From an uncultured Solirubrobacteraceae bacterium (GTDB lineage: Bacteria; Actinomycetota; Thermoleophilia; Solirubrobacterales; Solirubrobacteraceae): a DNA stretch of 64,000 bases. The stretch spans positions 76,160 through 140,159 of the forward strand of contig CAWETE010000001.1 of NCBI GenBank assembly GCA_963811895.1, in the 5' to 3' direction. Position numbers and translations under genes: made by a program. The notes under the pieces are model-generated. The model had not been told where the DNA came from. It made no database searches and saw only the letters and a program-made list of their open reading frames with translations. How positions within the stretch are numbered: position 1 is the stretch's first letter; each line of letters begins with the position of its first letter. Shown one piece after another: positions 11,441 to 55,439 of the stretch.

Positions 11441-12370
11441 CTACGCGTGCGCGATGACGATCTTCCCCAGGAACTCGCCCGACGCGTAGCGCTCGAACGC
11501 CGCCCGAGCGTCCGCGAGCGCGTAGGTGCCGTCGATGACCGGCACGACGGTGCCGTCCTCGAGCAGCGGGGTGAGGCGCTCGAGCGCCTCGCGGCCCGGC
11601 CGGTGGATCACGACGCCGATCCGCTTGCGGCGCGGTACGAGCCCGACGAGCGCGGTCCAGCCGATCCGCGGCAGCGTCCCGCCGATGACTCCGTAGACGC
11701 CTCCCGGCCGCAACGCGCGTCTGCACCGGGTCGAGGCGTGCAGGTCGACGATCCGGTCGTAGCGGCCGGCGATCCGCTCCTCGCGGTAGTCGATCACCTC
11801 GTCGGCGCCGAGCGAGCGCAGCATCTCGAACTTCGACGCGCTGTCGACGCCGGTCACGACGCCCCCGGACGCCTTGGCCATCTGCACGCCCAGCGACCCG
11901 AGGCCGCCGCCGGCGCCGTTGATGAGCACCGTGTCGCCGGGCCGCACCTCGCCGCGATAGGTCAGTCCCTGCAGGGCGAGAACGCCGGCCTGCGGCACCG
12001 CGGCCGCCTGCTCGAAGGTCAGCCCGGCGGGCATCGCCGCGAGCGCGCGCTCGGGCACGCAGACGTACTCGCCGAGCCCGCCCCACCCGTGGCCCGACAC
12101 GTCGCCGTACACGTCGTCGCCGGGCCGCAGCCGCGTCACCGCCGCGCCCACCGCCTCCACGCGCCCCGCGACGTCGGCGCCCATCACGGGATGGCGCGGC
12201 CGCCGGCCCACCGTCATCCGGCCCCTGAGCAGGTCCCAGTCCCACGAGTTGATCGACGTCGCGTGCACCTTGACGAGCACGTCATCGTCGCCCTGGAGGC
12301 GCGGTTCCGGCACCTGCTCGAGCCGGAGCTCCGCGGGTGAGCCGTAGCGGTGGTAGACGACAGCCTTCAC
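11441..12370 (-). CDS. Zinc-binding alcohol dehydrogenase / NADPH:quinone reductase family (MDR superfamily) oxidoreductase
   Basis: GTG at 12370 (VKAVVYHRYG...). GroES-like N-domain and Rossmann motif LINGAGGGLGSLGVQMAKASG. 309 aa. Confidence 0.8.
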   Translation of the reverse strand: MKAVVYHRYGSPAELRLEQVPEPRLQGDDDVLVKVHATSINSWDWDLLRGRMTVGRRPRHPVMGADVAGRVEAVGAAVTRLRPGDDVYGDVSGHGWGGLGEYVCVPERALAAMPAGLTFEQAAAVPQAGVLALQGLTYRGEVRPGDTVLINGAGGGLGSLGVQMAKASGGVVTGVDSASKFEMLRSLGADEVIDYREERIAGRYDRIVDLHASTRCRRALRPGGVYGVIGGTLPRIGWTALVGLVPRRKRIGVVIHRPGREALERLTPLLEDGTVVPVIDGTYALADARAAFERYASGEFLGKIVIAHA

Positions 12371-12418
12371 ACCGCGTGTTATCGCAAGTTCGCGGCCCGA
12401 GTGCCGTTTTGGCTCGCC

Positions 12419-14540
12419 ATGAGGACACTGGTCGCAGCGCTCACCGCGCTCCTGATCGCGCCCGCGAGCGCGAGTGCCGCGTTGAAGATCGACGTCGTCT
12501 CGAACCGGGCGGACCTGATCTCCGCGGGCGACGCGCTCGTCGCCATCGACGGGCCCGATCCGGCAGCCATCCGGGTGACCGAGGACGGCCGCGACGTCAC
12601 CGGCGCGTTCGCCGTTCGGCCCGACGGCCGCTTCGAGGGTCTGGTCACCGGCCTCGACGTCGGCGCCAACGAGCTCGTCGCCACCGACGGCGCCGACACC
12701 GCGCGCATCACGATCGCCAACCACCCCAACGGCGGCCCCGTCTTCTCCGGCCCGCAGATCCAGCCGTGGGTCTGCACCAACGGCTCGCCGGACCCCCAGT
12801 GCAACCAGCCCGCGACCTACCGCTACGAGTACAAGTCCTCGCTCGACGGGCAGCTGCACGAGTACGACCCCGACCAGCCGCCGAGCGACGTCGCGGAGAC
12901 CACGACCCAGACCGGCGAGACCGTCCCCTTCGTCATCCGCGTCGAGACGGGCTACCAGGACCGCGACCAGTACCAGATCGCCACGCTCTTCCAGCCCGGC
13001 GAGCCGTGGGAGCCGTGGGCGCCGCAGCCGCAGTTCAACCACAAGCTGCTGATCACCCACGGCGCGAGCTGCGGCATCGACCGCCAGTCCGGCTCCGCGC
13101 CCTCCGTCACCGGCGACACCGTGCTCGGCGACAGCCCGACGACGGCGCTCGGCCTCGGCTTCGCCGTGATGAGCACGGCGCTCAACAACGCCGGCCACAA
13201 CTGCAACCTCGTCACCCAGGCCGAGTCGATGGTGATGGCCAAGGAGCGGCTGATCGAGCAGTACGGCGAGATCCGCTACACGATCGGCACCGGCTGCTCG
13301 GGCGGCTCGCTGACCCAGCAGCAGGTGGCCAACGCCTACCCCGGCCTCTACCAGGGCATCCTGCCGGCCTGCTCGTTCCCCGACGCGTGGTCGACCGGCC
13401 AGCAGCTCGCGGCCTACAACCTGATCCGCCGCTACGTCGAGGACCCGTCGAAGTGGGCGCCCGGCGTGGTCTGGGACCCGCTCTCGATCGCCGCCGTCGA
13501 GGGCCACCCCAACCACGTCAACTCGATCGTCTTCGACAGCGTCTACTGGACCGACCTCGGCGTGCCGGACGACGGCTGCGCCGGCGTGCCCGACGACCAG
13601 GTCTACGACGCCGAGACCAATCCCGGCGGCGTGCGCTGCACCCTCGCCGACCTGATGATCAACGTCTTCGGTCCGCGCCCGCCGCAGGACTTCGCCGGCA
13701 TCCCGCTCGACAACGTGGGCGTCCAGTGGGGATTGTCGGCGCTGCAGACAGGGCCGGATCACGACCGCCCAGTTCGTCGACCTCAACGAGAAGAGCGGCG
13801 GGCTCGACGTCGACGCCCAGTGGCAGCCGCAGCGCACCGAGGCCGACAGCACCACGATGCGGCGCGCGTACCGCTCCGGGGCGATCAACTCGGCCAACCA
13901 CCTCGACCAGGTCGCGATCATCGACCTCCGCGGCCCCGACCCCGGAGCCTTCCACGACGCGTACCGCTCGTGGGCGACGCGCGCCCGGCTCGAGCGCGAG
14001 CACGGCCACTTCGACAACCAGGTCATCTGGGTGGGCCAGGTGCCGCTCATCGGCGACCCGCGCTGGACGACCGAGGCGATGCTCACGATGGACCGCTGGC
14101 TCGCGGCCGTCGAGCAGGACGACAGCGCACGACCGCTGCCCGAGAAGATCGTCGCCAACCGCCCCGCGGACCTCCGCGACCGCTGCTCCCAGATCCCCGC
14201 CGTCGAGCAGATCGGCGCCGTCTGCGAGCACGAGCAGGTGCAGACCCGCTACGGCACGCCCGCGACCGTCGCCGGCGAGAGCATCGCCACCGACACCAAC
14301 AAGTGCGCGCTCAAGCCGCTGCGCCGCGCCGACTACTACCCGATCGTCTTCACGCCCGACCAGTGGGCGCGCCTGCAGCGCGCGTTCCCGATCGGCGTCT
14401 GCGACTGGAGCCGCCCCGGCCCCGAGCAGCAGGGCGCGATCCCGTGGCAGACCTACCAGGAGGCCGACGGCAGCGTGATCCACGGCGGGCGCGCCCTCGA
14501 GCCGGCGCCCCTCGGATCAGGCTGGACGAGCTTCGACTGA
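12419..14540 (+). CDS. Secreted alpha/beta-hydrolase, tannase/feruloyl-esterase-like (GCSGGS nucleophile motif); interrupted by a 1-nt frame change near 13750
   Basis: ATG at 12419 with signal peptide MRTLVAALTALLIAPASASA. Frame 1 is coherent to ...VGVQWGLSALQTG (~13750) and then turns Arg-rich. The continuation GRITTAQFVDLNEKSGGLDVDAQW...MRRAYRSGAINSANHLDQV... sits in the frame of ORF 13857..14540. Confidence 0.55.
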
Positions 14541-29931: not shown

Positions 29932-31278
29932 TCAGGCAGGCGCGAAACGGACGTGCCGGCGGGCCGGTTCCGCCTCCACCAGCCGCACGATCAGCTCCTT
30001 GCCCGGCTCCAGCTCCCCCTCGCAGCGGGCGCGGACCGCCGGCTCGGCGAGCTGGATCTCGTGGTCGTCGATCACCGTCGCCGGGAACCGCTCGCCGACG
30101 TGCGGCGCGAGCACGAGCGCCTCGACGAGGTCGACGCACGCGCGCTCGAGGGCGCCGGCGGCGCGCCCACCGGCCGCCATCTCGGCCGGCACCGCGTCGA
30201 GCCCGGGGAGCTCCTCGCCGAGGCAGGCGGCGGTCGCGTAGCGGTCGGCCAGCCGCCGCAGCGGCGCGGTGACGTGCGCGTACGGCGCGCCCACTCCCGC
30301 GTGTCCGGCGCCGTCAGGCGGCGTCCCGTCGAAAGCGGCGTAGCCCGCTCCGCGCAGCAGCGTGGCCGCCTCCTCGAGCAGCGCGGCGTGGCGCGGCTGC
30401 AGCGGGTCGAGCGAGCGGATGAGCTCGCCCACCGGCTCGCGCCATTCGACGCCGAGCGCCTCGGCCACCCGCCGCAGCCGGGCGACCTGGTTCGCATCGG
30501 CCGGCGGCAGCGTGCGCAGCAGCCCGACGCCCCTCTCGATCATCAGCCCGGCCGCCGCCATGCCGGTCATCAGCGAGATCTGTGCGTTCGCCTCCTCGAT
30601 CGGCAACGGGCCGCGGTAGGCCAGCGCGTAGGCGCCGTCGCGCATCACGATCTCCTGGTCGGGGATCGGCAGGTTGATCGCGCCGCGCGCCCGCTCGCGC
30701 TGCTGCAGGAGCGCGCCGATCTCGGCGAGCAGGCGGATGCGCTCGTCGGCCGGAGGCGCCGAGGCGTAGGCGAACCGCTCACGGCTGCGGACGAGGGCGC
30801 GCTCGACGCCGAGCAACTGCCACGCGCCGTCCGGCTCGAGCGCGAACGACCAGACGACGGCCGGTCGATCCACGCCGGGCAGCAGGCTGGCCGCGCCCTC
30901 TGACAGCACGCGCGGATGCAGCGGCTCGTTGCCGTCGGGCAGGTAGCGCGTGACGACCCGCCGGTGGGCTTCCGCGTCGAGTGCCCCGCCGGGTTTCACG
31001 AAGGCGGCCACGTCGGCGATCGCATAGTCGACCCGGTAGCCGTCGCCGGAGCGCGACAGGCCCATCGCCTGGTCGAGGTCCATCGAGCCCGGCGGGTCGA
31101 TCGTGAACAGCTCGAGCTCGCGGCGGTCCTCCCGCGCCGGCAGCGGCGCCCGGGCCGCGTCCTCGGCCTCGCGCAGCGCCTCGGGCGGGAAGTCGCCCGG
31201 CACGTCGAGCTCCTCGCGGATGGCGGCGAGCCCGGCAGCGAGATCGGCGGGCACTTCAGGTGCGGTGAGGCGGCGCAT
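29932..31278 (-). CDS. RNB-domain exoribonuclease (RNase II/R family)
   Basis: ATG at 31278 ([13 protein letters not shown]...). RNB catalytic-domain motifs ([15 protein letters not shown], [22 protein letters not shown] equivalents). ~448 aa. Confidence 0.75.
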
Positions 31279-32704
31279 GGCCCTAGCATCGCCGCCGATG
31301 CTCGTCGCCGAACATGAGCTCGAGGTCCCGCTCGACCACGCCGACCCCGCCGGCGCCAAGATCACCGTCTTCGCGCGCGAGGTCGCCGACCCCGACGGCG
31401 CGGACCGGCCGTTCCTCGTCTACTTCGAGGGCGGGCCCGGCTACGAGGCGCCGCGGCCCACCCGCACGCCCGCCGAGCCCGGCTGGCTCGGCCGCGCGCT
31501 GAAGGAGTTCCGCGTCCTGCTGCTCGACCAGCGCGGCACCGGCCGCTCGGCGCCGGTCGCGGTGGCCGACGCCGACCGGCTGCGCCACTTCCGCGCCGAC
31601 TCGATCGTCCGCGACGCGGAGGCCTTCCGCGAGGCGCTCGGGGTCGAGCGCTGGAGCGTCCTCGGCCAGAGCTTCGGCGGCTTCTGCGTGACGACCTACC
31701 TCAGCCTGGCGCCCGAAGGGCTGCGCGAGGCGTTCATCACCGGCGGCCTGCCGCCCGTCGGGCGTCACGTCGACGACGTCTACACGGCCACATACGCGCG
31801 CGTGCGTGAGCGCACCCGCCGGTACTTCGCGCGCTACCCGCAGGATCGGCTCCCGCAGCGGGACGACCTCGTGCTTCCGAGCGGCGACCGCCTCAGCGCC
31901 CGGCGGCTCGCCCAGCTCGGCCTCGGGCTCGGCATGAGCGCCGGCGCCGAGCGTCTCCACCACCTGCTCGAGCTGCCGCCCGACTCCCCCGCCTTCCTGC
32001 ACGACGTCGAGGCCGCCACGCCGCTCGCCCGCAACCCGATCTTCGCCGTCCTCCACGAGGCCTGCTACGCCGACCGGGCACGCCTGCCCGCCTCCCCCTC
32101 GAATTCCCTTGTTCATACCCCCCTGATCACGCGCGACAACGTGCCCGCCAAGGTCAACGCGGTCTGCTACTTCCGCGTGATCGACGCCTCGCGGTCCGTC
32201 GTCGACGTCGAGAAGTACCTGCGCGCCACGTCGCAGATCGCTCAGACGACGCTCCGCTCGGTGCTCGGCAAGGCCGACCTCGACATGCTGCTGGGCGAGC
32301 GCGAGCAGCTCAACGAGGCGCTCCAGCACATCATCGACGAGCACACCGACCCGTGGGGGATCAAGGTCACGACCGTCGAGATCAAGGACGTCGAGATCCC
32401 GGTGGCGATGCAGCACGCGATGGCGCTCGGCGCGCAGGCGGAGCGCGAGCGGCGCGCGAAGATCATCCACGCGGAGGGCGAGTACCAGGCCTCGCAGCGG
32501 CTGCGCGACGCCGCCGACGTGATCTCCGGCAACCCCGCCGCGCTCCAGCTGCGCTACATGCAGACGCTGACGGAGATCGGGGCGACGCAGAACTCGACGG
32601 TCGTCTTCCCGCTGCCGCTCGACATGGTCAAGCCGTTCATCGAAGCGGCGGCCGACAAGTCGGTGGCGCAGAAGGAGAACGGACGTGAGATCGTCGTCCG
32701 ATGA
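31277..32704 (+). CDS. Chimeric ORF: N-terminal ~270 aa of an S33 prolyl aminopeptidase (proline iminopeptidase) fused in frame to the C-terminal ~200 aa of an SPFH/band-7 (stomatin/QmcA-like) protein
   Basis: PIP part: [10 protein letters not shown]...[12 protein letters not shown]...[11 protein letters not shown]...[10 protein letters not shown] (Ser nucleophile), but no C-terminal Asp/His region. From ~32104 the sequence ...[39 protein letters not shown]...[17 protein letters not shown]...[20 protein letters not shown] is the distal half of an SPFH domain with no N-terminal TM or first half. Junction at ccctcGAATTCccttgttcat. Start is ATG 31277 or 31298. Confidence 0.6.
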
Positions 32705-34514
32705 TCCTTCGTAGCGTCGTTCTCACCGTCGTCGCCGGGCTGCTCATCACTGCGCCGGCCGCCGCTTCGCAGAAGGTCCGCAGCTACCGCGTCAGCGAGG
32801 TGCGCGACCTCCTTGACCGCACCAAGGTGACCGTGGCGGGCGCCGCGATCGTGGAGGTCGACCACGCCGAGGTGGTGGCGACCGCCAACCGGCGCGCCGT
32901 GCGCCGCCTGCGCCGCGCGGGCTTCACGGTCGAGCGGATGTCCTCGGTGCGCAAGAAGCTGCGCCGGGCCGGCGGCCGCGCCGCCGCGTTCCCGCCGGCC
33001 GACTCCAGCTACCACGACTACGCCGAGATGGCGGCCGAGGTGAACGCCGTGGCGGCCGCGAACCCGAGCATCGTCTCCCGCGCTTCAGCCTCGGCAAGTC
33101 GTTCCAGGGCCGGGAGATCTTCGCCGTCAAGGTCTCCGACAACGTCGCCACCGACGAGAACGAGCCCGAGGTGCTGTTCACCGCCAACCAGCACGCGCGC
33201 GAGCACCTGACCGTCGAGATGGCGCTGTACATCCTGCAGCCAGCTCACCGCCGAGTACGGACCGACGCGCGGATCACCAACTTCGTCAACAGCCGCGAGA
33301 TCTGGATCGTCTCGATGGTCAACCCGGACGGCGTCGAGTACGACATCGCCACCGGCGGCTACCGGATGTGGCGCAAGAACCGCCAGCCCAACGCCGGGTC
33401 GACGCGGTCGGCACCGACCTCAACCGCAACTGGTCGTTCCAGTGGGGCTGCTGCGGCGGCTCGTCCGGCACGCTTCAGCTCGGAGACGTACCGCGGCCCG
33501 TCGGCCTTCTCGGCGCCCGAGACGCAGCGTGGTGCGCAACTTCGTCAACTCGCGCGTGGTCGGCGGCGTCCAGCAGATCAAGGCGCACATCGACTTGCAC
33601 ACCTACTCCGAGCTGATCCTGTGGCCGTACGGCTACACGACCGCCAACACGACCTCGACGCTCAACGCCAACGACCGCAACGCGCACGCCACGCTCGGCC
33701 AGAACATGGCCGCCACGAACGGCTACACGCCCGAGCAGGCGTCCGACCTCTACATCGCCGACGGCACGATCAACGACTGGATGTGGGGGACGTACAAGAT
33801 CTTCAGCTACACGTTCGAGATGTTCCCGACCGGCTCGAACCCCGGCTTCTATCCGCCCGACGAGCAGATCGGCCCGCAGACCTCGCGCAACCGCGCCGCG
33901 GTCCTGCTGTTCCTCGACGCCTCCGACTGCGTCTACAAGGTGATCGGACTGGGAATGCGGCGGTCCGGCGGCCGAGAGCGTCTACTTCGACAACTTCGAG
34001 GCGGCCAACGGCTGGACGGCGCCCGCGGCCGGTGACACCGCGACCGCCGGCCAGTGGGTGCGCGGCAACCCCGCCGGGACGAACAGCGGTGGCGTCAAGC
34101 AGCTCGACGCCACGGTGAGCGGGAGCAACGACCTCGTGACCGGCGCGTCCGCCGGCGCCGGCGGCGGGTGACTTCGACGTCGACGGCGGCGTGACCACCA
34201 TCACGTCGGGGCCGATCGCGCTCAACCAGTTCGGCAGCTACACGCTGACGTTCTCGCAGTACCTCGCGCACGGCTCGAACTCGAGCAGCGCCGACTACCT
34301 GCGGGTGGGCGTGCAGGTGGGCACCACGACGACGTGGGTCTGGACCCGCACCGGCGCGGCCGCCAACCTGAACGGCGCCTGGAGCACCGCCTCGGCGTCG
34401 CTCAACCAGTTCGCCGGCCAGCCGACCGTCCGGCTCGTCGTGCAGGCCGCCGACGCGTCGACCGCCAGCCTCGTCGAGGCCGGGGTCGACGACGTCAGGA
34501 TCACGGGGAGCTAG
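32701..34514 (+). pseudogene. M14-family zinc carboxypeptidase (carboxypeptidase T-like, secreted) disrupted by at least eight 1-nt indels
   Basis: ATG 32701 (overlaps the previous stop, ATGA). Signal peptide [23 protein letters not shown]. Homologous segments are scattered over all three + frames: ...[20 protein letters not shown]..., ...[24 protein letters not shown]..., ...[27 protein letters not shown]..., ...[20 protein letters not shown]..., ...[19 protein letters not shown]..., ...[22 protein letters not shown]..., and the C-terminal domain ...FDVDGGVTTITSGPIALNQFGS...VDDVRITGS*. Example: gtctcccgcGcttcagcc where removing one g restores VSRFSLGKS. Confidence 0.7.
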
Positions 34515-36486: not shown

Positions 36487-36907
36487 TCGCCCACGAGCCG
36501 ATCGCCAGCGCCGCGATGCCCGCCGCCGCCCGCGCGCGGCCGATCTGGCGCGGCGGCCGCAGCGGCCACAGCAGCGGCGTCGGCGCCGCGTCGTCGCTCG
36601 CGTCGCGCAGCAGGTGCGACGTGAGGCCCGCGAACCCCGCCCAGCCGTGCACCGGCCCGCCGGCCGCCGTCCCCAGTGCGGCGGCCGCGAGCGTCGCGAG
36701 CAGCGTGTGGCTGCGCGGCCGCGTGCGCAGGCCGAGCATCGCGCTCGGCCGCGCCGAGCGCGCGGCGACCGCGTGGTCGACGTCGATCAGCGTGCCTGCC
36801 ACGACCGCGGTCACCATCGGCCGGCGCCCGAGCGGCGCCACGACCGCGGCGGCCAGCAGCGCGTGGGCGAACGGGTCGGCGCCCGCGACGAGGTGGCGCC
36901 GGTTCAC
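36425..36907 (-). CDS. Membrane-bound metal-dependent hydrolase, YdjM/DUF457 family
   Basis: GTG at 36907 overlaps the ROK gene stop (GTGA). Motifs GTLIDVDH, RSHTLLATLA and GLTSHLLRDASDDAAPTPLLWPL mirror E. coli YdjM PDIDH / FTHSLL / SHILADMLTPAGVPLLWP. Confidence 0.6.
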   Translation of the reverse strand: MNRRHLVAGADPFAHALLAAAVVAPLGRRPMVTAVVAGTLIDVDHAVAARSARPSAMLGLRTRPRSHTLLATLAAAALGTAAGGPVHGWAGFAGLTSHLLRDASDDAAPTPLLWPLRPPRQIGRARAAAGIAALAIGSWAIRAAGAGGPTSAGAAGDGGA

Positions 36908-37876
36908 GCGGGCGCGGGCGCGCCGCTGACCAGGAGCGAGGCGCCGATCGCCCCGCCGAGGTCGCCGAGCGCCGCCAGCTCGACGGCCGGCGGGTGGTCG
37001 TCGGCGAACAGGTGCGGCATCATCGCCTCGCGGATCCGCTCCACATAGGGCTCGCCGAGCCGCAGGCCGAGGCCGCCGCCGATGATGATCGCCTCGACGT
37101 CGAGCACGTTCTGGCACGAGGCCACGCCGGCGCCGAGCGCGCGCACGGCGCGTTCGAGCAGGCTGCGGGCCAGCGGGTCGCCCTTGTCGAGCGCGCGCGC
37201 CCACACGCCGCTGGACAGCCGCGTGCGCCCGCGCTCCTCCATGATCTTGAAGAGGAGGGTCTTCTCGCCGCGGTTGGCGCGCCGGCGCGCGCGGGCCTCC
37301 ATCGAGGCGCGCCCGGCGTAGGCCTCCATGCAGCCGCGGCGGCCGCAGCCGCACAGGGCGCCGCCGATGCGGACCACCACGTGGCCGATCTCGCCGGCCA
37401 CGTCGCGGCCGATCCACGGCTTGCCGTCGAGCACGATCCCGCCGCCCACGCCGGTGCCCCAGAACACGCCGAGCAGCGAGCTGTAGGGGCGGCCGGAGCC
37501 GAGTGCGAACTCCGCGTCGGTCGCCACCTGGACGTCATTGCCGAGCCGCACCGCAGCGCCGCAGGACTTCTCGAGCGACTTGCGCATGTTGAACGAGCCG
37601 CCCCAGCCGGGCAGGTTCATGGCCGCCGACACCGTGCCGGCCGTCGTCGTCCACGTTGCCCGGCGAGCCGATGCCGATGCCCTCGAGCGACGAGGTCTCG
37701 AGGCCCGCCTCGGCGGCGGCCTCCTGCAGCGCGCCGGCGATCTCGGCCGCTACGCCGGCCGGACTGCCGGTCGTCGGCGTGGGCCGACGTGACTGGCCGG
37801 CGACTTCGCCGCGCTCGTCGACGACGACCGTCTGGATCTTGGTGCCTCCGAGATCGACTCCCCCGGTGTATCCCAT
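36904..37876 (-). CDS. ROK-family sugar kinase (glucokinase-like); one frame change near 37635
   Basis: ATG 37876 (MGYTGGVDLGGTKIQTVVVDERGEV...GIGIGSPGNVDDDG). Then the frame of ORF 36904..37632 continues ...TVSAAMNLPGWGG...GHVVVRIGGALCGCGRRGCMEAYAG (ROK Zn motif). Confidence 0.65.
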
Positions 37877-39329: not shown

Positions 39330-39882
39330 GGCGACGATCGTGGACCGCGCAACCAGCGCCGGCATCGGGGGAACCCCTAATGATCCGGGTATAGGCGCGA
39401 GATGTCGCGCTTCACGGAACGCATCACGCGTCACCTCGGGCGGCCGGTCGAGGCCGCGTGCGCCGTCCGGCCGCCCTTCACCACGCTGGCGATCGCGCTC
39501 AGGGCCGGGGCGGGCGCGGAATCGGCTCGCTCCTTGGGCGGTCCGCTGCTGGCCGCCTGCCGGTGGCCGATCGCCGCCTACGTGATCCTCTGGTTCGAGA
39601 CGCGGGGCAGCGGCACGAGCCTGAACATGGCGCTCGTGCTCTTCGACGAAGAGGTCGAGCTGGTGCAGCTTCGCGTGATCGGAAACCCGCTGGTGAGGAC
39701 GCTGAGCTCGATCCCCTACGCCGACATCGCGGGCGTCGAACGTGGATGAAGGGTTCCTCGAGCTCAAGGTCACGATCCGCACGTCGCGCGACACGCTCAA
39801 GGTGGCGGGCGGCAAGCGCGGCATCGGCGCGGCGCCTCCGGTGATCGATGAGCTGCGGCGTAGGATCGCGATATGAAGGTCG
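39033..39882. repeat. Copy 1 of an ~850-bp tandem direct duplication (5' end of the beta-propeller gene, the divergent promoter region, a small plus-strand gene and the first 11 nt of the glyoxalase gene)
   Basis: 39033-39470 is ~99% identical to 39889-40345 (about 5 differences). The small-gene bodies are only ~75% identical. Both copies end ...ctgcggcgtaggatcgcgatATGAAGGTCGT. Confidence 0.8.
39402..39876 (+). pseudogene. Small hypothetical membrane protein, paralogue copy 1 (frameshifted near 39730)
   Basis: MSRFTERITRHLGRPVEAACAVRPPFTT... is homologous to 40261..40734. After ...PYADIAGVE the frame must shift +1 to continue ...VDEGFLELKVTIRTSRDTLKVAGGKRGIGAAPPVIDELRRRIAI*. In-frame stop at 39749. 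Confidence 0.55.
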
Positions 39883-39888
39883 TTGGTG

Positions 39889-40188
39889 GGAGCGCGGCCG
39901 GGTGTCGCTGACCGGGGTGTCGAAGTCGGCCAGCACGTTGCCCTGGCGGTCGAGCCGGTGCAGGCGCACGCCGGTGAGGGCGATCATCGTGCCGTCGTCG
40001 GCCTGCGAGACGTCGGCGTAGCGGCCGCTGGTGGTCACGCGGTACTGGCGCGAGCCGTCGCCGGTCGACAGCCAGACGTCGCCGCCCTTGATGTAGGCGA
40101 TCGAGTCGGCCATGGCGGCCGGCGCGGCGATCACCAGCACCAGCAGCGCGCCGCACACCGCGAGGAGTCGGGAGAGGGGGGAGGACAT
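39889..40188 (-). pseudogene. Duplicated 5' fragment (start codon, signal peptide, first ~100 codons and promoter) of the beta-propeller gene 37998..39329
   Basis: ATG 40188 with the same gggggagg RBS. Encodes MSSPLSRLLAVCGALLVLVIAAPAAMADSIAYIKGG...DTPVSDTRP, identical to the parent. Then it runs into unrelated sequence. Confidence 0.7.
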
Positions 40189-40260
40189 GCCGACGATCGT
40201 GGACCCCGCAACCAACGCCGGCATCGGGGGAACCCCTAATGATCCGGGTATAGGCGCGAG

Positions 40261-48095: not shown

Positions 48096-51007
48096 CTAGT
48101 GGGCCGCTCGGGTGCGGCCGACGGCCTGGGCGACCTCGGCGCGGGAGGTGACGCCGAGCTTGGCGAAGATGCGCGTGAGGTGGCCCTCGACGGTCTTCTC
48201 GGAGAGGAAGAGCTCGGCGCCGATCTCGCGGTTGGTGCGGCCCTCGGCGACCAGCTCGGCGATCTCGCGCTCGCGGCCGGAGAGGGCGTCGAGGCCTTCG
48301 CCGCTGGCGCGGCGCTGGCGGGCGGAGACGCGCTCGCCGAGCCGGCGCAGCTCGCGCGCGGCCTCGTCGCGGTAGCGGGCGGCGCCGAGCTGGGACAGCT
48401 CGGACTCGGCGCGGGTGAGCTCGGCCACGCCCTCGTCGCGCCGCCCGGCCGCGGCCAGCGCCATGCCGGCGAGCGTCCGGCAGCGCGCGGCGGCCAGCGG
48501 GACGTCGACCGACTCGGCGCGCTCGGCGCCTTCGAGCGCCAGCGTCGCGGCGGCCTCCGCGTCACCGGCCTCGAGCACGACCGCGGCGCGCGCGTGCAGC
48601 ACCCACGCCTCGGCCAGCGGCAGCCCGAGCCCGCCGACGATCTGCTCGCCGCGCTCCGCCCACCGCACGGCCGCGTCGCGGTCGCCGCGAGCGAGCTCGG
48701 CACGCGCCAGCGCCGCGTACATCCACGCGCGCCGGCCCGGCTCGATCGAGGGGAGGTCCGGCAGGCCGACGGCGCGCACGGCGGCCAGGCAGCGGTCGAC
48801 CTCGCCGAGGTCGGCCCACAGCACGCCCAGGTGCGCGTGCGTGCCGCGCGTGAGCACGCTGTCGTCGAGCCCTTCGAGCAGGGCCACCGCCTCGTCGCCC
48901 GCGGCGCGCGCCCGGTCGACGTCGCCGAGATCGGCCACCGTCCACGCGTTGGCGACCAGCGCGAACACGACCAGCTGCCGGTTGCCGGCCAGCCGCGCGG
49001 CCTCGACCGCGCCGTCGGCGGTCTCCGCCGCCTCGGCGAGGAACCCGCGCGTCTGCAGCGCATGCGCGAGCCCGATCATCATCGGGACCACGAACTGGCC
49101 CTGGCCGATCGCGCGCGAGACGTTGATACCGCGCCGCAGGTGGCGGATCGCGTCGTCGTAGTGCTCGCAGAAGAACTCCGCGAAGCCGAAGTAGTACGGC
49201 GCGTCGAGCCGCAGCATGAGCTGGTCGTCGGGCAGCGCGTCGAGGAGCGCCGCGCACTGCACGCGGGCGGCCTCCGCGGCCTCAGGGTCGCCCCGGTTGT
49301 ACTCGGCGAAGCACAGCAGCGCCGTGGCCAGCGCCTCGAGCCCGCGGTCGCCGAGCCGCCGCGCCGTCTCGGCCGCGCGCGTCGCCCACTGACGCATCGC
49401 CTCGAAGTCGCTGTCGTAGAGCGCGTCGGCGGCCAGCTCGGCGTGCAGGGCGGCGGCCGCCGCGCCGTCCTGGTCGTCGAGCGCCTGCAGCGCGTCGAGC
49501 AGCCGCGCATGAGCCGCGTCGTGGCGGCCGAGCAGGTTCTCGCACGCCGCGCACGCGGCGATCAGGCGCACGCGCAGGTCGGGCAGCTCCACCAGCGCCA
49601 GCGCCTCGACGAGCGCCTCCAGCGCGCGCTCGAGCCGCCCGGTGGCGGCCAGCGCGCCCGCCAGCGGGACGAGCAGCCCGAGCCGGCGCACCGGGTCGAC
49701 CGCCGCCGGCTCGGGCGGAGGCGGCACAGGGCCGGCCGAGTCGCCGCCCAGCAGGCGCAGCGCCGCCTCGAACCAGCGGGCGGCTATCGCCGGCGCGCGG
49801 GCGGCGGCCTGGTGGCCGGCCTGCTCGAGCACCGCGGCGGCCGCCTCGTCGCCGATCTTCGCCGAGCGCTCGACGTGGTGCGCGCGCGCCGCCAGCGCAC
49901 CCGGCCGGTCGGTCAGCGCGGCCGCGGCGCGGGCGTGCGCCTCCAGCCTCCACGCCTCGCCGGCGCCGTCGTACACCGCGCGGCGCACGAGCGGGTGGCG
50001 GAAGCGATAGCGGCGCGCAACGTCGGTCGGCCCGGCGATGTGTGCGGCCAGCAGCTGGTCGAGCGCGGCCAGCGTCTCGCGCTCGTCCATGCCGGCGGCG
50101 GCGCCCGCGAGGTCGAGGTCGAACGGCTCGCCCGCCACCGCGGCGCCCCAGCCGAGCCGCCGGGCCGGCTCCGGCAGGCCGGCGATCTCCTGGCCGAGCG
50201 CGGCCGCCACGGCCGGCGGCACGCCCACGTGCTCGCCTCCGTGCCGGGCTCGGCGGCGGCCGGCGCGGGCGCCCGCGCCAGCTCCTCGAGGTAGAACGGG
50301 TTGCCGCCGCTCTGGCGGTAGATCGCCGGCAGCGCCGGGGCGCCGAGCAGCACGCCGGCCTCGGCCTCGGTGAGCGGTCCGAGCCCGATCTCGCTCACGA
50401 GCCCGTCGCGGGCGGCCTGGTCGAGCGCGGCCAGCAGGCTGTTGGGCACCTGCCCGGCGCGGAAGGCGAGCGCGATCAGCACGGGCGCCGGCGGCGGGCG
50501 CCGCAGGAGGTGGGCGATCAGCTCGAGCGAAGCATCGTCGGCCCAGTGCACGTCATCGAGCATCAGCACGACGGGATGGCCCATCGCCAGCCGCTGCAGC
50601 AGCGCGCGGACCGCGCGGTAGGCGTGGAAGCGCTCGTCCTGCAGGCCGCCCGCGCTCGCCCCCGAGCCGGCCGACGGCAGCACGCGCGCGAGCTCGGCCA
50701 CGCGCTCGCCGATCAGCGCCTCCAGCTTGCGCTCGCCGAGCGTGCCCACGTGGTCGTCGAGCGCGTCGATCCAGATCCCGAACGGCACTTCGAGCTCCAG
50801 CTCCGCGCCACGGCCCACGAACACGGCGTGCCGGCGCTCGGCGGCGCGCTCGGCGAGCTGGCCGAGCAGCCGCGTCTTGCCGATCCCGGGCTCGCCGCTG
50901 ATCACCAGGAAGCGGGCGCGCGCACCGCGCAGGCCGTCCAACGTGGCATCGATCGCCGCCAGCTCCTGGCGGCGCCCGACGAACTGCTTCTGCTGCGCCA
51001 GCGTCAC
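48096..51007 (-). CDS. LuxR-family large ATP-binding (LAL / STAND-type) transcriptional regulator: N-terminal AAA/P-loop NTPase, central TPR-like helical repeats, C-terminal LuxR HTH; one frame change near 50240
   Basis: GTG 51007. Walker [12 protein letters not shown] and Walker [13 protein letters not shown] in ORF 49913..51007. After ...[12 protein letters not shown] the frame switches to ORF 48096..50228 (...[23 protein letters not shown]...). C-terminal [42 protein letters not shown]. Confidence 0.7.
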
Positions 51008-51039
51008 CTGACCACCGACCCTAATCGACCCTCGCCGCC

Positions 51040-51717
51040 GTGAACAGGCGTGCCAGCCGCACCATCCGTAGGCTGCGCGGCGTGCATGATCTGAGCCCGG
51101 AAGAGGTGCGCGTCCTGGGCTGCCTGCTCGAGAAGCAGCGCACGACGCCGGACACCTATCCCCTGACGCTGAACGCCCTGCGTGCGGCGTGCAACCAGAG
51201 CACGAACCGCGAGCCGGTCCTCGCCTACGACGAGGAGACGATCCGCGACGCGCTCGACCGCCTCGGCCGCCGCCGCTTCACGCGGCTGACGAGCTACCAC
51301 GGCAGCCGCGCCGCCAAGTTCCGCCACCTGCTCGACGAGGCGCTGCAGATCGGCCCGGAGGAGCAGGCGGTGCTGGCCGTGATGATGCTGCGCGGCCCGC
51401 AGACCCCGGGCGAGCTGCTGCAGCGCACCGAGCGCCTGCACCGCTTCCCCGACATGGAGGCCCTGCACGCGGTGATCGACCGCCTGACGGAGCGCGAGCT
51501 GGTCGCGCGCTACGACCGCCGCCCCGGCCAGCGCGAGGACCGCTACGGCCACCTGCTCGGCGACGAGGCCGAGGAGGAGCCCTCGACCGCCCCGCCGCCG
51601 CCACGCCCCGTGCCGGTCGCCGCCCCCCGCGAGGACGACCGGCTGGACCGGCTCGAGCGCGAGCTGGCGGAGCTGCGCGCCGAGGTCGCCGCCCTGCGCG
51701 AGGAGCTCGGCGCGTGA
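51040..51717 (+). CDS. DUF480 / YceH-family protein (winged-helix, UPF0502)
   Basis: LSPEEVRVLGCLLEKQRTTPDTYPLTLNALRAACNQSTNREPV is the hallmark YceH N-terminus. Acidic/Pro-rich linker and coiled-coil C-terminus. Its stop overlaps the next ATG (TGATG). Confidence 0.75.
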   Translation: MNRRASRTIRRLRGVHDLSPEEVRVLGCLLEKQRTTPDTYPLTLNALRAACNQSTNREPVLAYDEETIRDALDRLGRRRFTRLTSYHGSRAAKFRHLLDEALQIGPEEQAVLAVMMLRGPQTPGELLQRTERLHRFPDMEALHAVIDRLTERELVARYDRRPGQREDRYGHLLGDEAEEEPSTAPPPPRPVPVAAPREDDRLDRLERELAELRAEVAALREELGA

Positions 51718-52730
51718 TGCGCTCGCGCACGGTCGAGACCGATCGCCTGCGCACGCATCTGGTCGAGACCGGGCCCGAGGACGGCATCCCCGTCGTGCTG
51801 CTGCACGGCAACCTCTCGACCGGCCGCTTCTTCGCGCACCTGGAGCCGCCCGCCGGCTACCGCCTGATCGCGCCCGACATGCGCGGCTTCGGCGACAGCG
51901 AGCGCAAGCCGATCGACGCCACGCGCGGCCTGCGCGACTGGGCCGACGACACCCGCGCGCTGGTCCGCGCGCTCGGCATCGAGCGGCCGATCCACATCGC
52001 CGGCTGGTCGACGGGCGGCGCCGCGGCCGCGCACTACGCGATGGAGCACCCGGTGACCTCGCTCACGCTGATCGACCCCGTCTCGCCGTACGGCTTCGGC
52101 GGCACGCGCCTCGACGGCACGCCCTGCCACGCCGACTACGCGGGCTCGGGCGGCGGCGTCGCCAGCCCCGACTTCGTCCAGCGCCTGGCCGCGGGCGACC
52201 GCAGCTCGGAGGCGACCACCTCGCCGCGCAGCGTCATGACCAGCTCGTACTGGTCGCCCACCCATCAGGAGCCGCGCGAGGAGGAGCTGCTGGACGAGCT
52301 GCTCAAGTCGGCGATCGGCGACGACTTCTACCCCGGCGACCTGACCGAGTCCGGGAACTGGCCCGGCGTCGCCCCGGGCACGCGCGGGATCATCAACGCG
52401 ATCTCGCCGAAGTACTGCGACTGGTCAGGGCTCGCTGACCTGGACTCGAAGCCTCCGATCCTGTGGACTTACGGGAGCGAGGACGTGGTGATCTCCGACA
52501 GCTCCGCATGGGACGTCGGCATGCTCGGCCAGGCCGGCCACGTTCCCGGCTGGCCGGGAGAGGACGCCCACCCGCCGCAGCCGATGGTGTCGCAGACGGC
52601 GGCGCTGCTCGAGCGCTGCGGCGACGTCCGCGTCGAGCGCTTCGAGGGCTCGGGCCACTTCCCGCCGATCGACGCGGCCGAGCGCTGGAGCCAGGTCTTC
52701 TTCGGCTTCCTCGAGGACGCCGAGCGGTGA
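51717..52730 (+). CDS. Alpha/beta-hydrolase-fold protein
   Basis: VVLLHGNLSTGRFF...HIAGWSTGGAAAAHYAMEHP (GxSxG)...GSGHFPPIDAAERW. 337 aa. Its stop overlaps the next GTG (GTGA). Confidence 0.7.
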   Translation: MRSRTVETDRLRTHLVETGPEDGIPVVLLHGNLSTGRFFAHLEPPAGYRLIAPDMRGFGDSERKPIDATRGLRDWADDTRALVRALGIERPIHIAGWSTGGAAAAHYAMEHPVTSLTLIDPVSPYGFGGTRLDGTPCHADYAGSGGGVASPDFVQRLAAGDRSSEATTSPRSVMTSSYWSPTHQEPREEELLDELLKSAIGDDFYPGDLTESGNWPGVAPGTRGIINAISPKYCDWSGLADLDSKPPILWTYGSEDVVISDSSAWDVGMLGQAGHVPGWPGEDAHPPQPMVSQTAALLERCGDVRVERFEGSGHFPPIDAAERWSQVFFGFLEDAER

Positions 52731-54066
52731 CCGTCGCGTTCCAACAGCGCAAGCGCTGGCGGAACCACACGGGCAACCAGTCGATCGAGCCGCTGCGGAT
52801 CTACCGGCCCGCGACGCTCGAGGACGTGCAGGAGATCGTGCGCAGCGCCGAGCGCGACGGCGCCACCGTGCGCGCCGTCGGCTCCGGGCACTCGTGGTCG
52901 GACGTCGCGCTCACCACCGGCTACCTGGTGCGGCCCGAGCGGCTGAACCGGCCGCTCGAGATCGACGGCAACCTCGTGCGCGTGGAGGCCGGCATGCGCA
53001 TCCGCGAGCTCAACCGGCATCTCGACGACAACGGGCTCGCGTTGTCGAACATGGGCGGCTACGACGCCCAGACCGTGGCGGGCGTCATGTCCACCGCCAC
53101 CCACGGCTCCGGGATCTCCTTCGGCCCGATCGCCGACGCCGTCCGCTCGCTCGAGCTCGTGGCGAGCGGCGGGCGGGTCATCCGCATCGAGCGGGGCGAC
53201 GCCATGTTCGACGCGGCGGTCGTCTCCATGGGCTGCATGGGGGTGATCTACGCGGCCACCCTCGAGGTCGAGCCCGCGTACTGGCTGACCGAGGTGCGCG
53301 AGCTGTCGACCTGGGCGCAGCAGCGCGAGCGGATCCCCGAGGCGCTCCGGGTCAACCGCCACTACGAGGTGTACCTGAACCTCTACGGCGAGCACCGCTG
53401 CATCGCCTGCCGGCGCAACCGCACCACCGATCACCGCCGCAAGCGCGCGACCGACCGCCTGCGCCGCCACTGGTGGCTCGAGCTCGCCAGCCGCTCGAAG
53501 GTCATCCCCTTCCTCGGCAACCTGGTGCTCGACGCGCTGCCGGACACGGCGCCCGCCCGCACCGACCAGCTGCTCGGCTTCCTCGCCGACAACGAGTACA
53601 CGGGCCCTCGTACAAGGTGCTGAACATCGGCGCCGCCAACCTGCTGCCCGCCTACTCGTCGGAGCTGGCCGTGCCGCTCGACAACTTCGCCGAGGCGATC
53701 GACCGCCTGTTCGAGGTCGCCGCCCGCCACCGCGAGCTCGGCCGCGTCTACCACACCGGCCTCGTCGCCCTGCGCTTCGTGAAGGCCTCGCCCGCCTACC
53801 TGTCGATGATGCACGGGCGCGACACGATGATGATCGAGCTCATCCAGGCGACCGACACCGAGGGCGGCTTCGAGCTGCTCGGCGCCTACGAGGAGGCGCT
53901 GTACGACCTCGGCGGCCGCCCGCACTGGGGCCAGGTGAACACGCTCGCCGGCCCGCTGGACCGCATGTACCCGGAGTTCGACCGCTGGCTCGCCGTCCAC
54001 GACGAGCTCAACGCGACCGGCGTGTTCGACAGCCCGTTCTCGAAGCGCGTGGGCATCAGCAGGTAA
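52727..54066 (+). CDS. FAD-linked oxidase of the D-arabinono-1,4-lactone / L-gulonolactone oxidase (ALO) family; one frame change near 53605
   Basis: N-terminal FAD_binding_4 (RAVGSGHSWSDVA, STATHGSG). ORF 52463..53623 ends ...YTGPRTRC*. The shifted frame continues ...GPSYKVLNIGAANLLPAYSSELAVPLDNFAEAIDRLFE...GRPHWGQVNTLAG... (ALO C-domain) to 54066. A missing c in ggcccc is the likely cause. Confidence 0.65.
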
Positions 54067-54103: not shown

Positions 54104-55426
54104 GTGCCACTCATGCTCCCGCGGATGCTCGGAGCGGACACCGAGGTTGCGTGCGTCGACGGCCGGATGCTGCGATACGCGAACCTCGACTATGCCGCCA
54201 GCACACCTGTCATGGCCGATGTCTGGGCCGCCGTCGAGGCCTTCGTGCCCTGGTACAGCAGCGTGCACCGCGGCAGCGGCGTCAAGTCGCAGGTCGCGAC
54301 CGCCGAGTTCGAGGGCTCGCGCGACGTGGTCGCCGCCTTCGTGGGGGCCCGCGCGGACGACACCGTCGTCTTCGTGCGCAACACCACCGAGGCGATCAAC
54401 GTGCTCGCCGCCTCGCTGCCGGACGGCACGCGCGTGCTCTCCAGCACCGCCGAGCACCACGCCAACATGCTCCCCTGGCGGCGCCACGACGTCCGCCTGC
54501 TCCCCTTCACGCGCTCGCCCGACGAGCTGCTCGAGGCGACCGAGCGCGCGCTGCGCGCCGAGCGGATCGACCTCGTCGCCGTCACCGGCGCCTCCAACGT
54601 CACCGGCGAGGTGTGGCCGGTCGCCGAGCTCGCCCGGCTCGCGCACGAGCACGGCGCCGAGCTGTTCGTCGACGCCGCCCAGCTCGCCCCGCACCGCGCG
54701 ATCGACATGGCGCGCGCCGGGATCGACCACCTGGCGCTCTCCGGCCACAAGCTCTACGCCCCGTTCGGCTCGGGCGCGCTGGTCGGCCGCCTGCGCGAGG
54801 GGACGCCGCTGCTCTCCGGCGGCGGCGCCATCAAGCTCGTCACCGTCGACGACGTCACCTGGGCGCCCGCCCCGGACCGCTTCGAGGCCGGCTCGCCCAA
54901 CGTGGTCGGCGTGATCGCGCTGGCCGCCGCCTGCCGCAGCCTGATGGCGCTCGGCATGGACACGGTCGCCGCCCACGAGCGCTCGCTCGCCGTGCGGATG
55001 TGGACGGCGCTGGAGCGCGTCCCCGGCCTCGAGATGCTGACCCAGTGGGCGCCGGGCAGCGTCGACCGCGTCGGCGTCGCCACCTTCAACCTGGCCCGCT
55101 ACCGCGATCCGCTGCTGGCCGCCATCCTCAGCGCCGAGCACGCGATCGGCGTCCGCCACGGCTGCTTCTGCGCCCACCCGCTGATGACGCACCTGCTCGG
55201 CGTGCCGGACGGCGAGGCGGAGCGGTTCCACGCCGAGCTGCGCGCCGGCCGCTCGCCGCAGCTGCCGGGCGCGGTGCGCGCCAGCATCGGGATCGGGACC
55301 ACCGCGGAGGACATCGACCGGCTCGTCGGCGCCCTGCGCGAGATCGCCCGCTACGGCCCGCGCTCGCGCTACGTCCACGTGCCCGAGCACGACGAATACC
55401 GCGCCGAGCTGGCCGCGGCCGCTTGA
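54104..55426 (+). CDS. Class-V aminotransferase-fold PLP enzyme (cysteine desulfurase / SufS-CsdA-like)
   Basis: 440 aa. ...VTGASNVTGEVWPVAELARLAHEHGAELFVDAAQLAPHRAIDMARAGIDHLALSGHKLYAPFGSGAL (PLP-Lys in SGHK). Confidence 0.75.
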   Translation: MPLMLPRMLGADTEVACVDGRMLRYANLDYAASTPVMADVWAAVEAFVPWYSSVHRGSGVKSQVATAEFEGSRDVVAAFVGARADDTVVFVRNTTEAINVLAASLPDGTRVLSSTAEHHANMLPWRRHDVRLLPFTRSPDELLEATERALRAERIDLVAVTGASNVTGEVWPVAELARLAHEHGAELFVDAAQLAPHRAIDMARAGIDHLALSGHKLYAPFGSGALVGRLREGTPLLSGGGAIKLVTVDDVTWAPAPDRFEAGSPNVVGVIALAAACRSLMALGMDTVAAHERSLAVRMWTALERVPGLEMLTQWAPGSVDRVGVATFNLARYRDPLLAAILSAEHAIGVRHGCFCAHPLMTHLLGVPDGEAERFHAELRAGRSPQLPGAVRASIGIGTTAEDIDRLVGALREIARYGPRSRYVHVPEHDEYRAELAAAA

Positions 55427-55439
55427 GAATTCCTGCACG

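Follow-up and report, generated by a model that had tools for sequence, protein, structure and literature searches.

The protein considered here was compared with a described enzyme of MEROPS family M14, subfamily A, the Thermoactinomyces vulgaris carboxypeptidase T (PDB 1OBR). The roles of the zinc ligands, the catalytic Glu and the substrate-binding Arg, Asn-Arg and Tyr are well established in the CPA/CPT enzymes. Two described situations leave a bacterial gene recognisable while interrupting its reading frame. Pseudogenes built by frameshifting, as in Mycobacterium leprae and recent host-restricted pathogens, show multiple frameshifts in a recognisable gene, and true pseudogenes damaged to such a degree also carry substitutions, stop codons, deletions, a loss of codon bias and lesions common to close relatives. 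In indel-fragmented Nanopore-only assemblies (the problem behind the IDEEL test), indels of one or two bases cut ORFs into pieces whose homology is perfectly kept and whose codon bias persists; they affect many genes of a contig, and these genes differ from one assembly of a population to the next. According to the literature, consensus indels in Nanopore data shift reading frames and break up gene calls when coverage is less than about 40-fold (PMC9262707).

A carboxypeptidase-T-like M14 gene is located in the 64,000-nucleotide stretch of Solirubrobacteraceae DNA which was analysed (the whole stretch is referred to as the window); its coordinates and those of the associated features are listed in Table 1. 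The domain order of the gene is signal peptide, pro-region, catalytic domain and C-terminal beta-rich domain. An ORF scan and three-frame translation revealed no ORF spanning 32701-34514, the longest there being no more than 315 aa, while a single M14-like protein could be followed through the frames 0>2>0>2>1>2>0>1>2. The earlier note on this sequence had described the gene as broken by at least eight indels and its product as untranslatable as given. Re-examination found exactly eight frame-shifting indels on the forward strand (+1 at five sites, -1 at two and +2 at one), no continuous frame for the whole enzyme, and continuity only after eight edits. The breaks are almost certainly an artefact of assembly and not biological gene decay. 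Judged from the sequence comparisons below, the organism probably carries an ordinary, functional, secreted zinc carboxypeptidase of the carboxypeptidase T type, the eight frameshifts being absent from its DNA and having arisen as long-read consensus errors (probability about 0.85).

Table 1. Positions of the carboxypeptidase gene, its frame breaks and neighbouring features in the window
Feature	Position	Strand	Description
Carboxypeptidase-T-like M14 gene	32701..34514	+	9 frame segments as sequenced; 602 codons after 8 edits
Predicted Sec signal peptide	32701..32769	+	23 residues; hydrophobic core and AxA motif; 100% identical to sister L014
Divergent 'long-loop allele' patch	32900..33560	+	~8% different from sisters that are otherwise ~99.7% identical; holds 6 of 8 frameshifts
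Frameshift 1 (+2)	33082..33083	+	Surplus GC in cgc[gc]ttc; absent from every relative
Frameshift 2 (+1)	33237..33237	+	Surplus base in ctg[c]agc; first of compensating pair
Frameshift 3 (-1)	33260..33261	+	Base lost between these positions; window tacg-gacc versus L001 tacgCgacc; second of pair
Frameshift 4 (-1)	33404..33405	+	Base lost in NAGSTxVGTD loop, before 33405
Frameshift 5 (+1)	33476..33476	+	Position free within 33472-33476; lies in a micro-patch with 3 substitutions
Frameshift 6 (+1)	33528..33528	+	Surplus C in cag[c]gtg
Frameshift 7 (+1)	33952..33952	+	Surplus base in gga ctg[g]gaa; inside second divergent micro-patch (33949-33974)
Frameshift 8 (+1)	34159..34160 (about 34159)	+	Surplus base in gcgc[c]ggcgg; the only break without a nearby substitution relative to sisters
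Chimeric ORF	31103..32704	+	Alpha/beta-hydrolase N-terminal part fused in frame to Band_7 C-terminal part
47-nt filler at deletion junction	32075..32121	+	Matches no relative

Six of the shifts were placed consistently by frameshift-aware protein-to-DNA alignment against six intact homologues, and the remaining two, which form the compensating pair, were confirmed by homologues with the sequence xQLTxxYGTDxRITNxVNS. Such a pair had been pointed out before, although its spacing is 23 nt and not 30. Deleting a single g from cgcGcttc, the repair previously offered as an example, leaves the frame wrong, as both bases of the surplus GC must be removed. Insertions account for six of the eight events. 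Homopolymer context was not the pattern at these sites, all eight of which sit in runs of no more than 3 nt or in no run.

Eight minimal edits gave an ORF of 602 codons with zero stops. The stitched protein aligned to positions 3-284 (of 286) of the Pfam family Peptidase_M14 (PF00246) with 247 bits, a signal far beyond chance. Against carboxypeptidase T (1OBR), residues 2-324 aligned gaplessly (323 residues of catalytic domain, 478 bits), in agreement with the identity first proposed for the gene. HxxE, the second zinc His, Arg, Asn-Arg, Tyr and the catalytic Glu are all kept, and the motifs HAREH, HTYSE, WRKNRQP, DLNRN, DLYIxDG and TFEM are common to both proteins. Both surface loops of the enzyme (16-letter and 14-letter) are also present, as are an N-terminal signal peptide and, behind it, a pro-region (as read in the window sequence). 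The window protein differs from carboxypeptidase T in an extra C-terminal domain of ~185 aa without a Pfam match, which is common to the ~600-aa homologues of Solirubrobacteraceae and other actinomycetes, and in being encoded by a gene which is untranslatable as deposited. GC3 was 0.95-1.00 in each gene fragment. At 291 columns conserved in at least 95% of sequences the repaired protein has one private change, which is conservative, compared with one in the intact L009 and a median of 2-3 in 62 homologues; under neutral decay alongside eight indels, so few private changes would be expected with P =2e-3 to 2e-11. In addition, the patch peptide matched short-read JGI contigs as single segments of 561 nt (187 codons), which is the repaired length.

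The same gene was then compared in sister assemblies. The near-identical L014 and L015 (96-98% nucleotide identity overall) contain intact 593-aa copies and differ from the window by 0-1 mismatch per 60 nt over most of the locus; the gene is also intact in L009 and L001, while L017 and L016 carry different lesions. The breaks were found to lie close to substitutions relative to L014: a distance of 10 nt or less takes in six of the eight (P =0.013), and one of 15 nt or less takes in seven (P =0.007). Six fall in the single divergent patch of 660 nt. The 0.6 kb upstream and 0.9 kb downstream are clean and near-identical to the sisters. The last 950 nt of the gene differ from L014 by only nine substitutions (six of them in one micro-patch), yet contain two frameshifts. 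Set against six other sequences, among them L001 with its intact long-loop allele, the window alone is off in length at all eight sites; at six of these the others all have one length, so that those six sites are not simple intermediates between two allele lengths. L017 (99.1% identical to L014) was assembled independently from another sample; at three of the window's micro-sites it has indels not divisible by three, with lengths between those of the short and long alleles. The genes adjoining its carboxypeptidase are intact. L016 is fragmented nearly everywhere. Insertions of 11 nt and 17 nt, considered as single events relative to L009, were resolved into in-frame loop-length differences and 1-nt errors by means of L001 and 1OBR.

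Besides the carboxypeptidase, at least six genes of the window are frame-broken, encoding a ROK protein, a DUF6351 protein, a LuxR/MalT regulator, a gulonolactone dehydrogenase, a patatin-DUF3376 protein and a TPP-enzyme. The surroundings had been thought intact, a view which does not extend to the window as a whole. Isolated 1-nt indels break the ROK, LuxR/MalT, gulonolactone dehydrogenase and TPP-enzyme genes, and two of these, both deletions, sit exactly on positions which are C/G-polymorphic among the sisters; the patatin-DUF3376 gene (region 55.4-58.5 kb) contains ~80 indels of lengths not divisible by three. Each of these five genes is intact in a near-identical sister, while the split in the DUF6351 gene was judged by Pfam continuity only, in a region covered by no sister. 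Of the roughly sixty genes in the contig (gene count estimated), eight or more are frame-broken or fused, and the subset of genes broken differs between sister assemblies (cluster fragment sizes; gene tables L014-L021). The window also holds a partial tandem duplication at 39.4-40.2 kb.

Of the flanking genes named as continuous, the one for the lipase, whose 275 aa show 99.6% identity to L014, and the 1267-aa phosphatase-like gene are indeed so, while the PIP/SPFH ORF proved to be a deletion fusion. Sister L014 has a further 1075 nt here, comprising the hydrolase C-terminus, nfeD and the Band_7 N-terminus, the loss of which gives this chimeric ORF. An ONT adapter remnant was rejected as the source of the filler at the junction, since 60% of shuffles and 77% of random 47-mers from the window reached at least the same local alignment score.

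An assembly artefact is favoured because unrelated genes of the contig are broken in the same way, the sisters break different genes and the breaks track strain-variable sites, as one of two suggestions in the earlier note, that of a locally error-prone stretch of a draft assembly, had anticipated. The relatives L001, L002, L009, L010 and L011 are MAGs of the Microflora Danica (MFD) project, which is described as Nanopore-only (metaFlye with one round of Medaka), and the sister contigs are named contig_N; the present assembly is probably also Nanopore-only, made with Flye and one Medaka round. We infer both the platform of this contig and a mixture of strains, as opposed to simple low coverage. 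Reads of co-occurring strains with different alleles of the gene, a short-loop form (as in L014, L015 and L009) and a long-loop form (as in the window), may have been piled onto one contig, and at allele differences such as SNP clusters and loop lengths the polisher would write out a mixed sequence, longer or shorter by one or two bases. Such polishing could also have broken the other genes of the contig and, at other positions, those of the sister assemblies. Compared with the classical Nanopore-only case, in which homopolymers are affected, the events in the window are mostly outside homopolymers and at strain-variable positions, which points to polishing of mixed haplotypes; homopolymer miscalling was rejected as the mechanism, as most of the eight contexts are not homopolymers. 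The second haplotype remains hypothetical because no intact, near-identical long-loop gene was found, the patch being matched at best at 86% in a set of 210 collected proteins and at 82% in contigs of JGI metagenomes. The biological import of the locus is little, the protein being a conventional carboxypeptidase T homologue which is intact in sister genomes, and its value is as a flag for data quality. As breaks are densest at sites of strain difference, the variable genes would be where the use of such long-read-only soil MAGs most distorts protein catalogues, pseudogene counts and pangenome presence/absence calls.

A simpler form of error, in which few or poor reads left random residual indels unrelated to strain mixtures, is a sub-variant of the artefact explanation and not a biological alternative, and is the less likely account of this gene, though one with some weight. 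The 1.1 kb concerned contain ~0.7% indels, close in magnitude to raw-read error, further isolated indels are scattered along the contig, and both the pervasive fragmentation of L016 and frameshift 8, which has no polymorphism nearby, would fit. Random errors would not, however, be expected to spread so unevenly, leaving the flanks clean, to cluster at variable sites (P =0.007-0.013), to recur in L017 at three of the same micro-sites or to fall exactly on two C/G-polymorphic positions elsewhere. Programmed ribosomal frameshifting or other recoding, for which nothing speaks beyond the frame changes themselves, would have to account for eight shifts without a common motif, some forwards and some backwards and two of them compensating each other; it is effectively refuted by the intact orthologues, which are single ORFs, and its probability is negligible.

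The deletion beside the gene could be a sign of a genuinely damaged locus, and the remaining explanations take the lesions as real. If true, they would represent an unusual natural mutational burst consisting of indels only, and the evidence is strongly against this. A genuine, very recent pseudogene, in a strain which carries all eight indels, perhaps after the nfeD-SPFH deletion had ended the function or expression of the locus, was the other suggestion in the earlier note and is now very unlikely. Eight disruptions within one gene beside an intact lipase, and a 1075-nt deletion with 47-nt filler striking the same gene cluster, are what such a history might leave. Unlike in pseudogenes of the M. 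leprae type, though, the conserved sites of the gene are not enriched in substitutions, stop codons are lacking, codon bias is kept (GC3 ~1.0) and no lesions are common to its closest relatives, the breaks in sisters being different, and near-identical sisters are intact. The ratio of indels to substitutions in its last 950 nt is not a natural one, at least six genes of unrelated function are broken in the same 64 kb, five of them intact in near-identical sisters, and bacterial mutation is generally biased towards deletion, against which the excess of insertions stands out. It is very improbable that, in one Solirubrobacteraceae strain, a double-strand break in the nfeD-SPFH-carboxypeptidase cluster was end-joined to leave the 1-kb deletion and filler, while recombination with a divergent allele or accompanying error-prone synthesis introduced eight indels, but hardly any substitutions, into the following 2 kb. 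Equally, it is scarcely credible that repair synthesis of an error-prone kind, for example in Ku/LigD end-joining or by translesion polymerases, produced a real burst of indels tied to the break that made the deletion. A deletion with non-templated filler does resemble an end-joining scar, and the cluster of frameshifts starts about 1 kb from the junction; the 950 nt from the junction to the first frameshift are clean, however, similar breaks occur tens of kb away, and L017 is broken at three of the same loops while retaining the 1 kb that the window has lost upstream.

An ORF search of the window (72.9% G+C, zero Ns) found no open reading frame spanning 32701-34514 (+), the interval of the carboxypeptidase-T-like M14 gene, and the three forward translations of this interval contained a single recognisable protein which switches frame eight times. 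The frame jumps were mirrored in the GC3 frame plot (GC3 of 0.95-1.00 per fragment) and six of the shifts were placed consistently by frameshift-aware protein-to-DNA alignment against six intact homologues. The eight frame-shifting indels catalogued (see the table) bear out the earlier note, which had described a gene broken by at least eight small indels and not translatable as deposited; the deposited DNA does contain this feature. The note's sample repair took one base out where two must go, and the compensating pair it reported does exist, with a spacing of 23 nt and not 30. This pair was confirmed by the homologue motif xQLTxxYGTDxRITNxVNS, which corresponds to a frame-0 stretch of the window followed by a frame-2 continuation. 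At all eight break sites only the window departs in length from six other sequences, among them the related locus L001.

Frame-breaking lesions and associated features, in window positions
Feature	Position	Strand	Lesion or state
DUF6351 (tannase-like) gene	12341-14537	+	break near 13749, two frames
PIP/SPFH chimera	31103-32704		in-frame fusion
Filler in chimera	32075-32121		47 nt
Carboxypeptidase frameshift 1	33082-83	+	+2 (GC)
Carboxypeptidase frameshift 2	33237	+	+1, compensating pair
Carboxypeptidase frameshift 3	after 33260	+	-1, compensating pair
Carboxypeptidase frameshift 4	before 33405	+	-1
Carboxypeptidase frameshift 5	33476	+	+1
Carboxypeptidase frameshift 6	33528	+	+1
Carboxypeptidase frameshift 7	33952	+	+1
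Carboxypeptidase frameshift 8	about 34159	+	+1
ROK-family gene (323 aa in L014)	36907-37876	-	split by window-only +1, about 37642
Partial tandem duplication	39366-40240		absent from L014, L009 and L001
Extra copy of 157-aa gene	39402-39873		divergent (54-64% aa), frameshifted
Second copy, codons 1-110 of 455-aa Tricorn_N-like gene	39895-40224		99% identical
LuxR/MalT-type regulator (AAA_16, TPR_MalT, GerE)	48099-51277	-	1-nt deletion near 50236
FAD-dependent gulonolactone dehydrogenase	52727-54063	+	1-nt deletion near 53602
Patatin-DUF3376 gene	55400-58520	+	single 1040-aa ORF in L021
TPP-dependent enzyme (541 aa in L021)	59512-61354	-	split near 60147, window-only +1

The eight edits yielded a 602-codon CDS without an internal stop. 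The stitched protein matched Pfam Peptidase_M14 (profile positions 3-284 of 286, 247 bits), while no Pfam match was found in its C-terminal ~185 residues, a region common to hundreds of ~600-aa homologues. Repaired residues 97-419 aligned with residues 2-324 of carboxypeptidase T of Thermoactinomyces vulgaris (PDB 1OBR) with zero gaps (478 bits), and the HxxE motif, distal zinc His, catalytic Glu and substrate-binding Arg, Asn-Arg and Tyr were all kept. The N-terminus looks like a Sec signal peptide, with a pro-region after it. Homologues numbered more than 7,000, the closest being intact soil-metagenome proteins of 589-601 aa (82-87% identical), and several of the matches, as well as the related loci, carried a Solirubrobacteraceae label. 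The gene is a conventional homologue of carboxypeptidase T.

The same gene is intact in three sister genomes. Exact-protein look-ups identified L014 and L015, the closer sisters (96-98% identical), which carry 593-aa carboxypeptidase genes, and an intact orthologue is also present in L009 (Solirubrobacteraceae MAG MFD03602.bin.1.61), which is collinear with the window over 23 kb (93-96% nucleotide identity). The gene order in L014 (RNB, alpha/beta-hydrolase of 389 aa, NfeD, Band_7 of 267 aa, M14, GDSL lipase) is the ancestral one, and compared with it 1075 nt are gone from the window, namely the hydrolase C-terminus, the entire nfeD gene and the Band_7 N-terminus. The upstream fusion of an alpha/beta-hydrolase (PIP) N-part to a Band_7/SPFH C-part is therefore a lesion; its junction may mark either a true filler-bearing deletion or a misassembly. 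The relatively AT-rich filler that takes the place of the lost DNA had no match in any relative compared; an ONT adapter was tested as its source and rejected. The neighbours had been described as intact, and this holds for the immediate lipase, the glycosyltransferase and the 1267-aa gene, but not for the chimera or for further genes of the window which are frame-broken.

Two readings had been offered for the locus, a pseudogene or an error-prone stretch of a draft assembly, and the first of these was contradicted by a lack of substitutional decay. At 291 alignment columns in which ≥95% of 61 other sequences agree, a single private change (T to S) was counted in the repaired protein; the intact L009 protein likewise has one, and the homologue median is 2-3. 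Eight indels accrued neutrally with 3-10 substitutions per indel would be expected to bring 8-28 conserved-column changes, and the probability of one or no such change under neutral decay is 2e-3 to 2e-11. Decay is unlikely because the repaired protein lacks a substitution excess, stop codons are absent from the repaired carboxypeptidase frame and codon bias is undiminished. Outside a patch (32.9-33.56 kb) and a micro-patch (33.95 kb), the locus shows 0-1 mismatch per 60 nt to L014 and L015. Over its final 950 nt the gene differs from L014 by 9 substitutions (6 in the micro-patch) and yet carries 2 frameshifts, an indel-to-substitution ratio which is not natural. All three lines, namely the substitutions, the near-identity to L014/L015 and the window-only lengths, speak against a decaying pseudogene.

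Within the divergent patch at 32.9-33.56 kb, which is not noise, 30 of the 36 protein columns that differ from the L014 allele carry residues known in other family members; in length, the repaired patch agrees with the single 561-nt matches obtained in dozens of JGI short-read contigs. Two loops of the window exceed those of L014, L015 and L009 in length and match the 1OBR loop length exactly, and L001 has an intact gene with the same long-loop architecture. The gene is accordingly mosaic: its two ends resemble L014, and the stretch between them is a long-loop allele of more canonical form. Six of the eight breaks fall inside the patch, and a substitution relative to L014 was found within 10 nt of six breaks (P = 0.013) and within 15 nt of seven (P = 0.007). 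In L017, an assembly from a different sample (99.1% identical to L014), three micro-sites that are also broken in the window carry non-3n indels peculiar to that assembly: +5 in the first loop, two of +1 in the second, and one of +1 in the 33.95-kb patch. Its loop lengths lie between the short and long alleles, and the genes flanking its carboxypeptidase gene are intact. Intermediate out-of-frame lengths, at length-polymorphic loops and in independent assemblies, are as expected of a mixed-allele consensus.

Further phase changes without stop codons were flagged by a GC3-phase HMM and each was then tested. ROK residues 1-78 and 79-323 lie in two frames (96% and 100% identical to L014), as do DUF6351 profile positions 1-423 and 421-654, where Pfam continuity was the basis. 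The LuxR/MalT-type regulator, split in the window, has 979 aa in L021 and 970 aa in L019, and the gulonolactone dehydrogenase, of 446 aa in L018, L019, L021 and many JGI contigs, is reduced to 298 + 149 aa. The isolated deletions in these two genes sit exactly at positions with C versus G among sisters (in the dehydrogenase, GGG[C/G]CCC). The N and M domains of the TPP enzyme share one frame and its C domain is in another. The patatin-DUF3376 gene, with ~80 non-3n indels, 20-30% nucleotide divergence from its sister and weakened GC3 periodicity, is damaged far more than the carboxypeptidase gene; it is broken differently in L018 and L019. Hypervariability of the gene, very poor polishing of the stretch or a combination of the two may account for this. 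The partial tandem duplication looks like two haplotypes placed in series by the assembler.

Sister assemblies (L014, L016-L019, L021) break genes which are intact in the window, and the subset differs by assembly. The malic enzyme of L014 has 429 aa as against 489 aa and its RNB gene is also broken; a hydrolase is split into 49 + 283 aa in L021 and a regulator into 472 + 498 aa in L018, where the patatin gene is broken too; many genes are broken in L019, and nearly every part of L016 is fragmented. The pattern suggests that residual indel errors are widespread across these long-read metagenome assemblies. As unrelated genes of the window are broken and the sisters break others, frame-breaking is a property of the family of assemblies and not of the carboxypeptidase gene.

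Several of the related loci are Microflora Danica MAGs, and the sisters nearest to the window are metagenome assemblies in ENA with contigs named contig_N; we infer that the window shares the provenance of these Microflora Danica/Nanopore relatives. High microdiversity is described in soils (PMC12313526), and a companion benchmark found that Nanopore consensus indels lead to frameshift errors and fragmented gene calls, near-finished quality requiring ~40-fold coverage (PMC9262707). With the breaks falling at variable sites, the assembly-error reading gained support, and we put the probability that they are a consensus error of long-read metagenome assembly, an artefact of some kind, at about 0.85. 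We favour mixed-haplotype polishing as the form of this artefact, though it is not proven: faced with conflicting alleles, the polisher would emit a hybrid sequence off by one or two bases. In favour of this version are the co-location statistics, the recurrence of breaks in L017 and the deletions at two polymorphic sites. Plain low coverage could add to the breaks, while classical homopolymer error did not fit the eight events. A genuine recent pseudogene is improbable, given that substitutional decay is absent and similar breaks occur tens of kb away, and the same two observations leave only a very slight chance for a repair-associated indel burst tied to the neighbouring deletion. In all likelihood the organism itself does not have the frameshifts; what the analysis usefully yields is a quality flag for the contig, in which breaks concentrate in strain-variable genes.

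Natural length polymorphism was also observed in two surface loops of the carboxypeptidase (L014 10001-11782, L015 3805-5586, L009 10001-11776). The loops are shortened in the L014/L015/L009 clade (NRLVNDAEFAQY, and QPSPTD in L009), and the long forms are kept by the window, L001 and carboxypeptidase T (1OBR). Mosaicism by recombination may underlie this polymorphism, or else the loops of this secreted enzyme may be diversifying.
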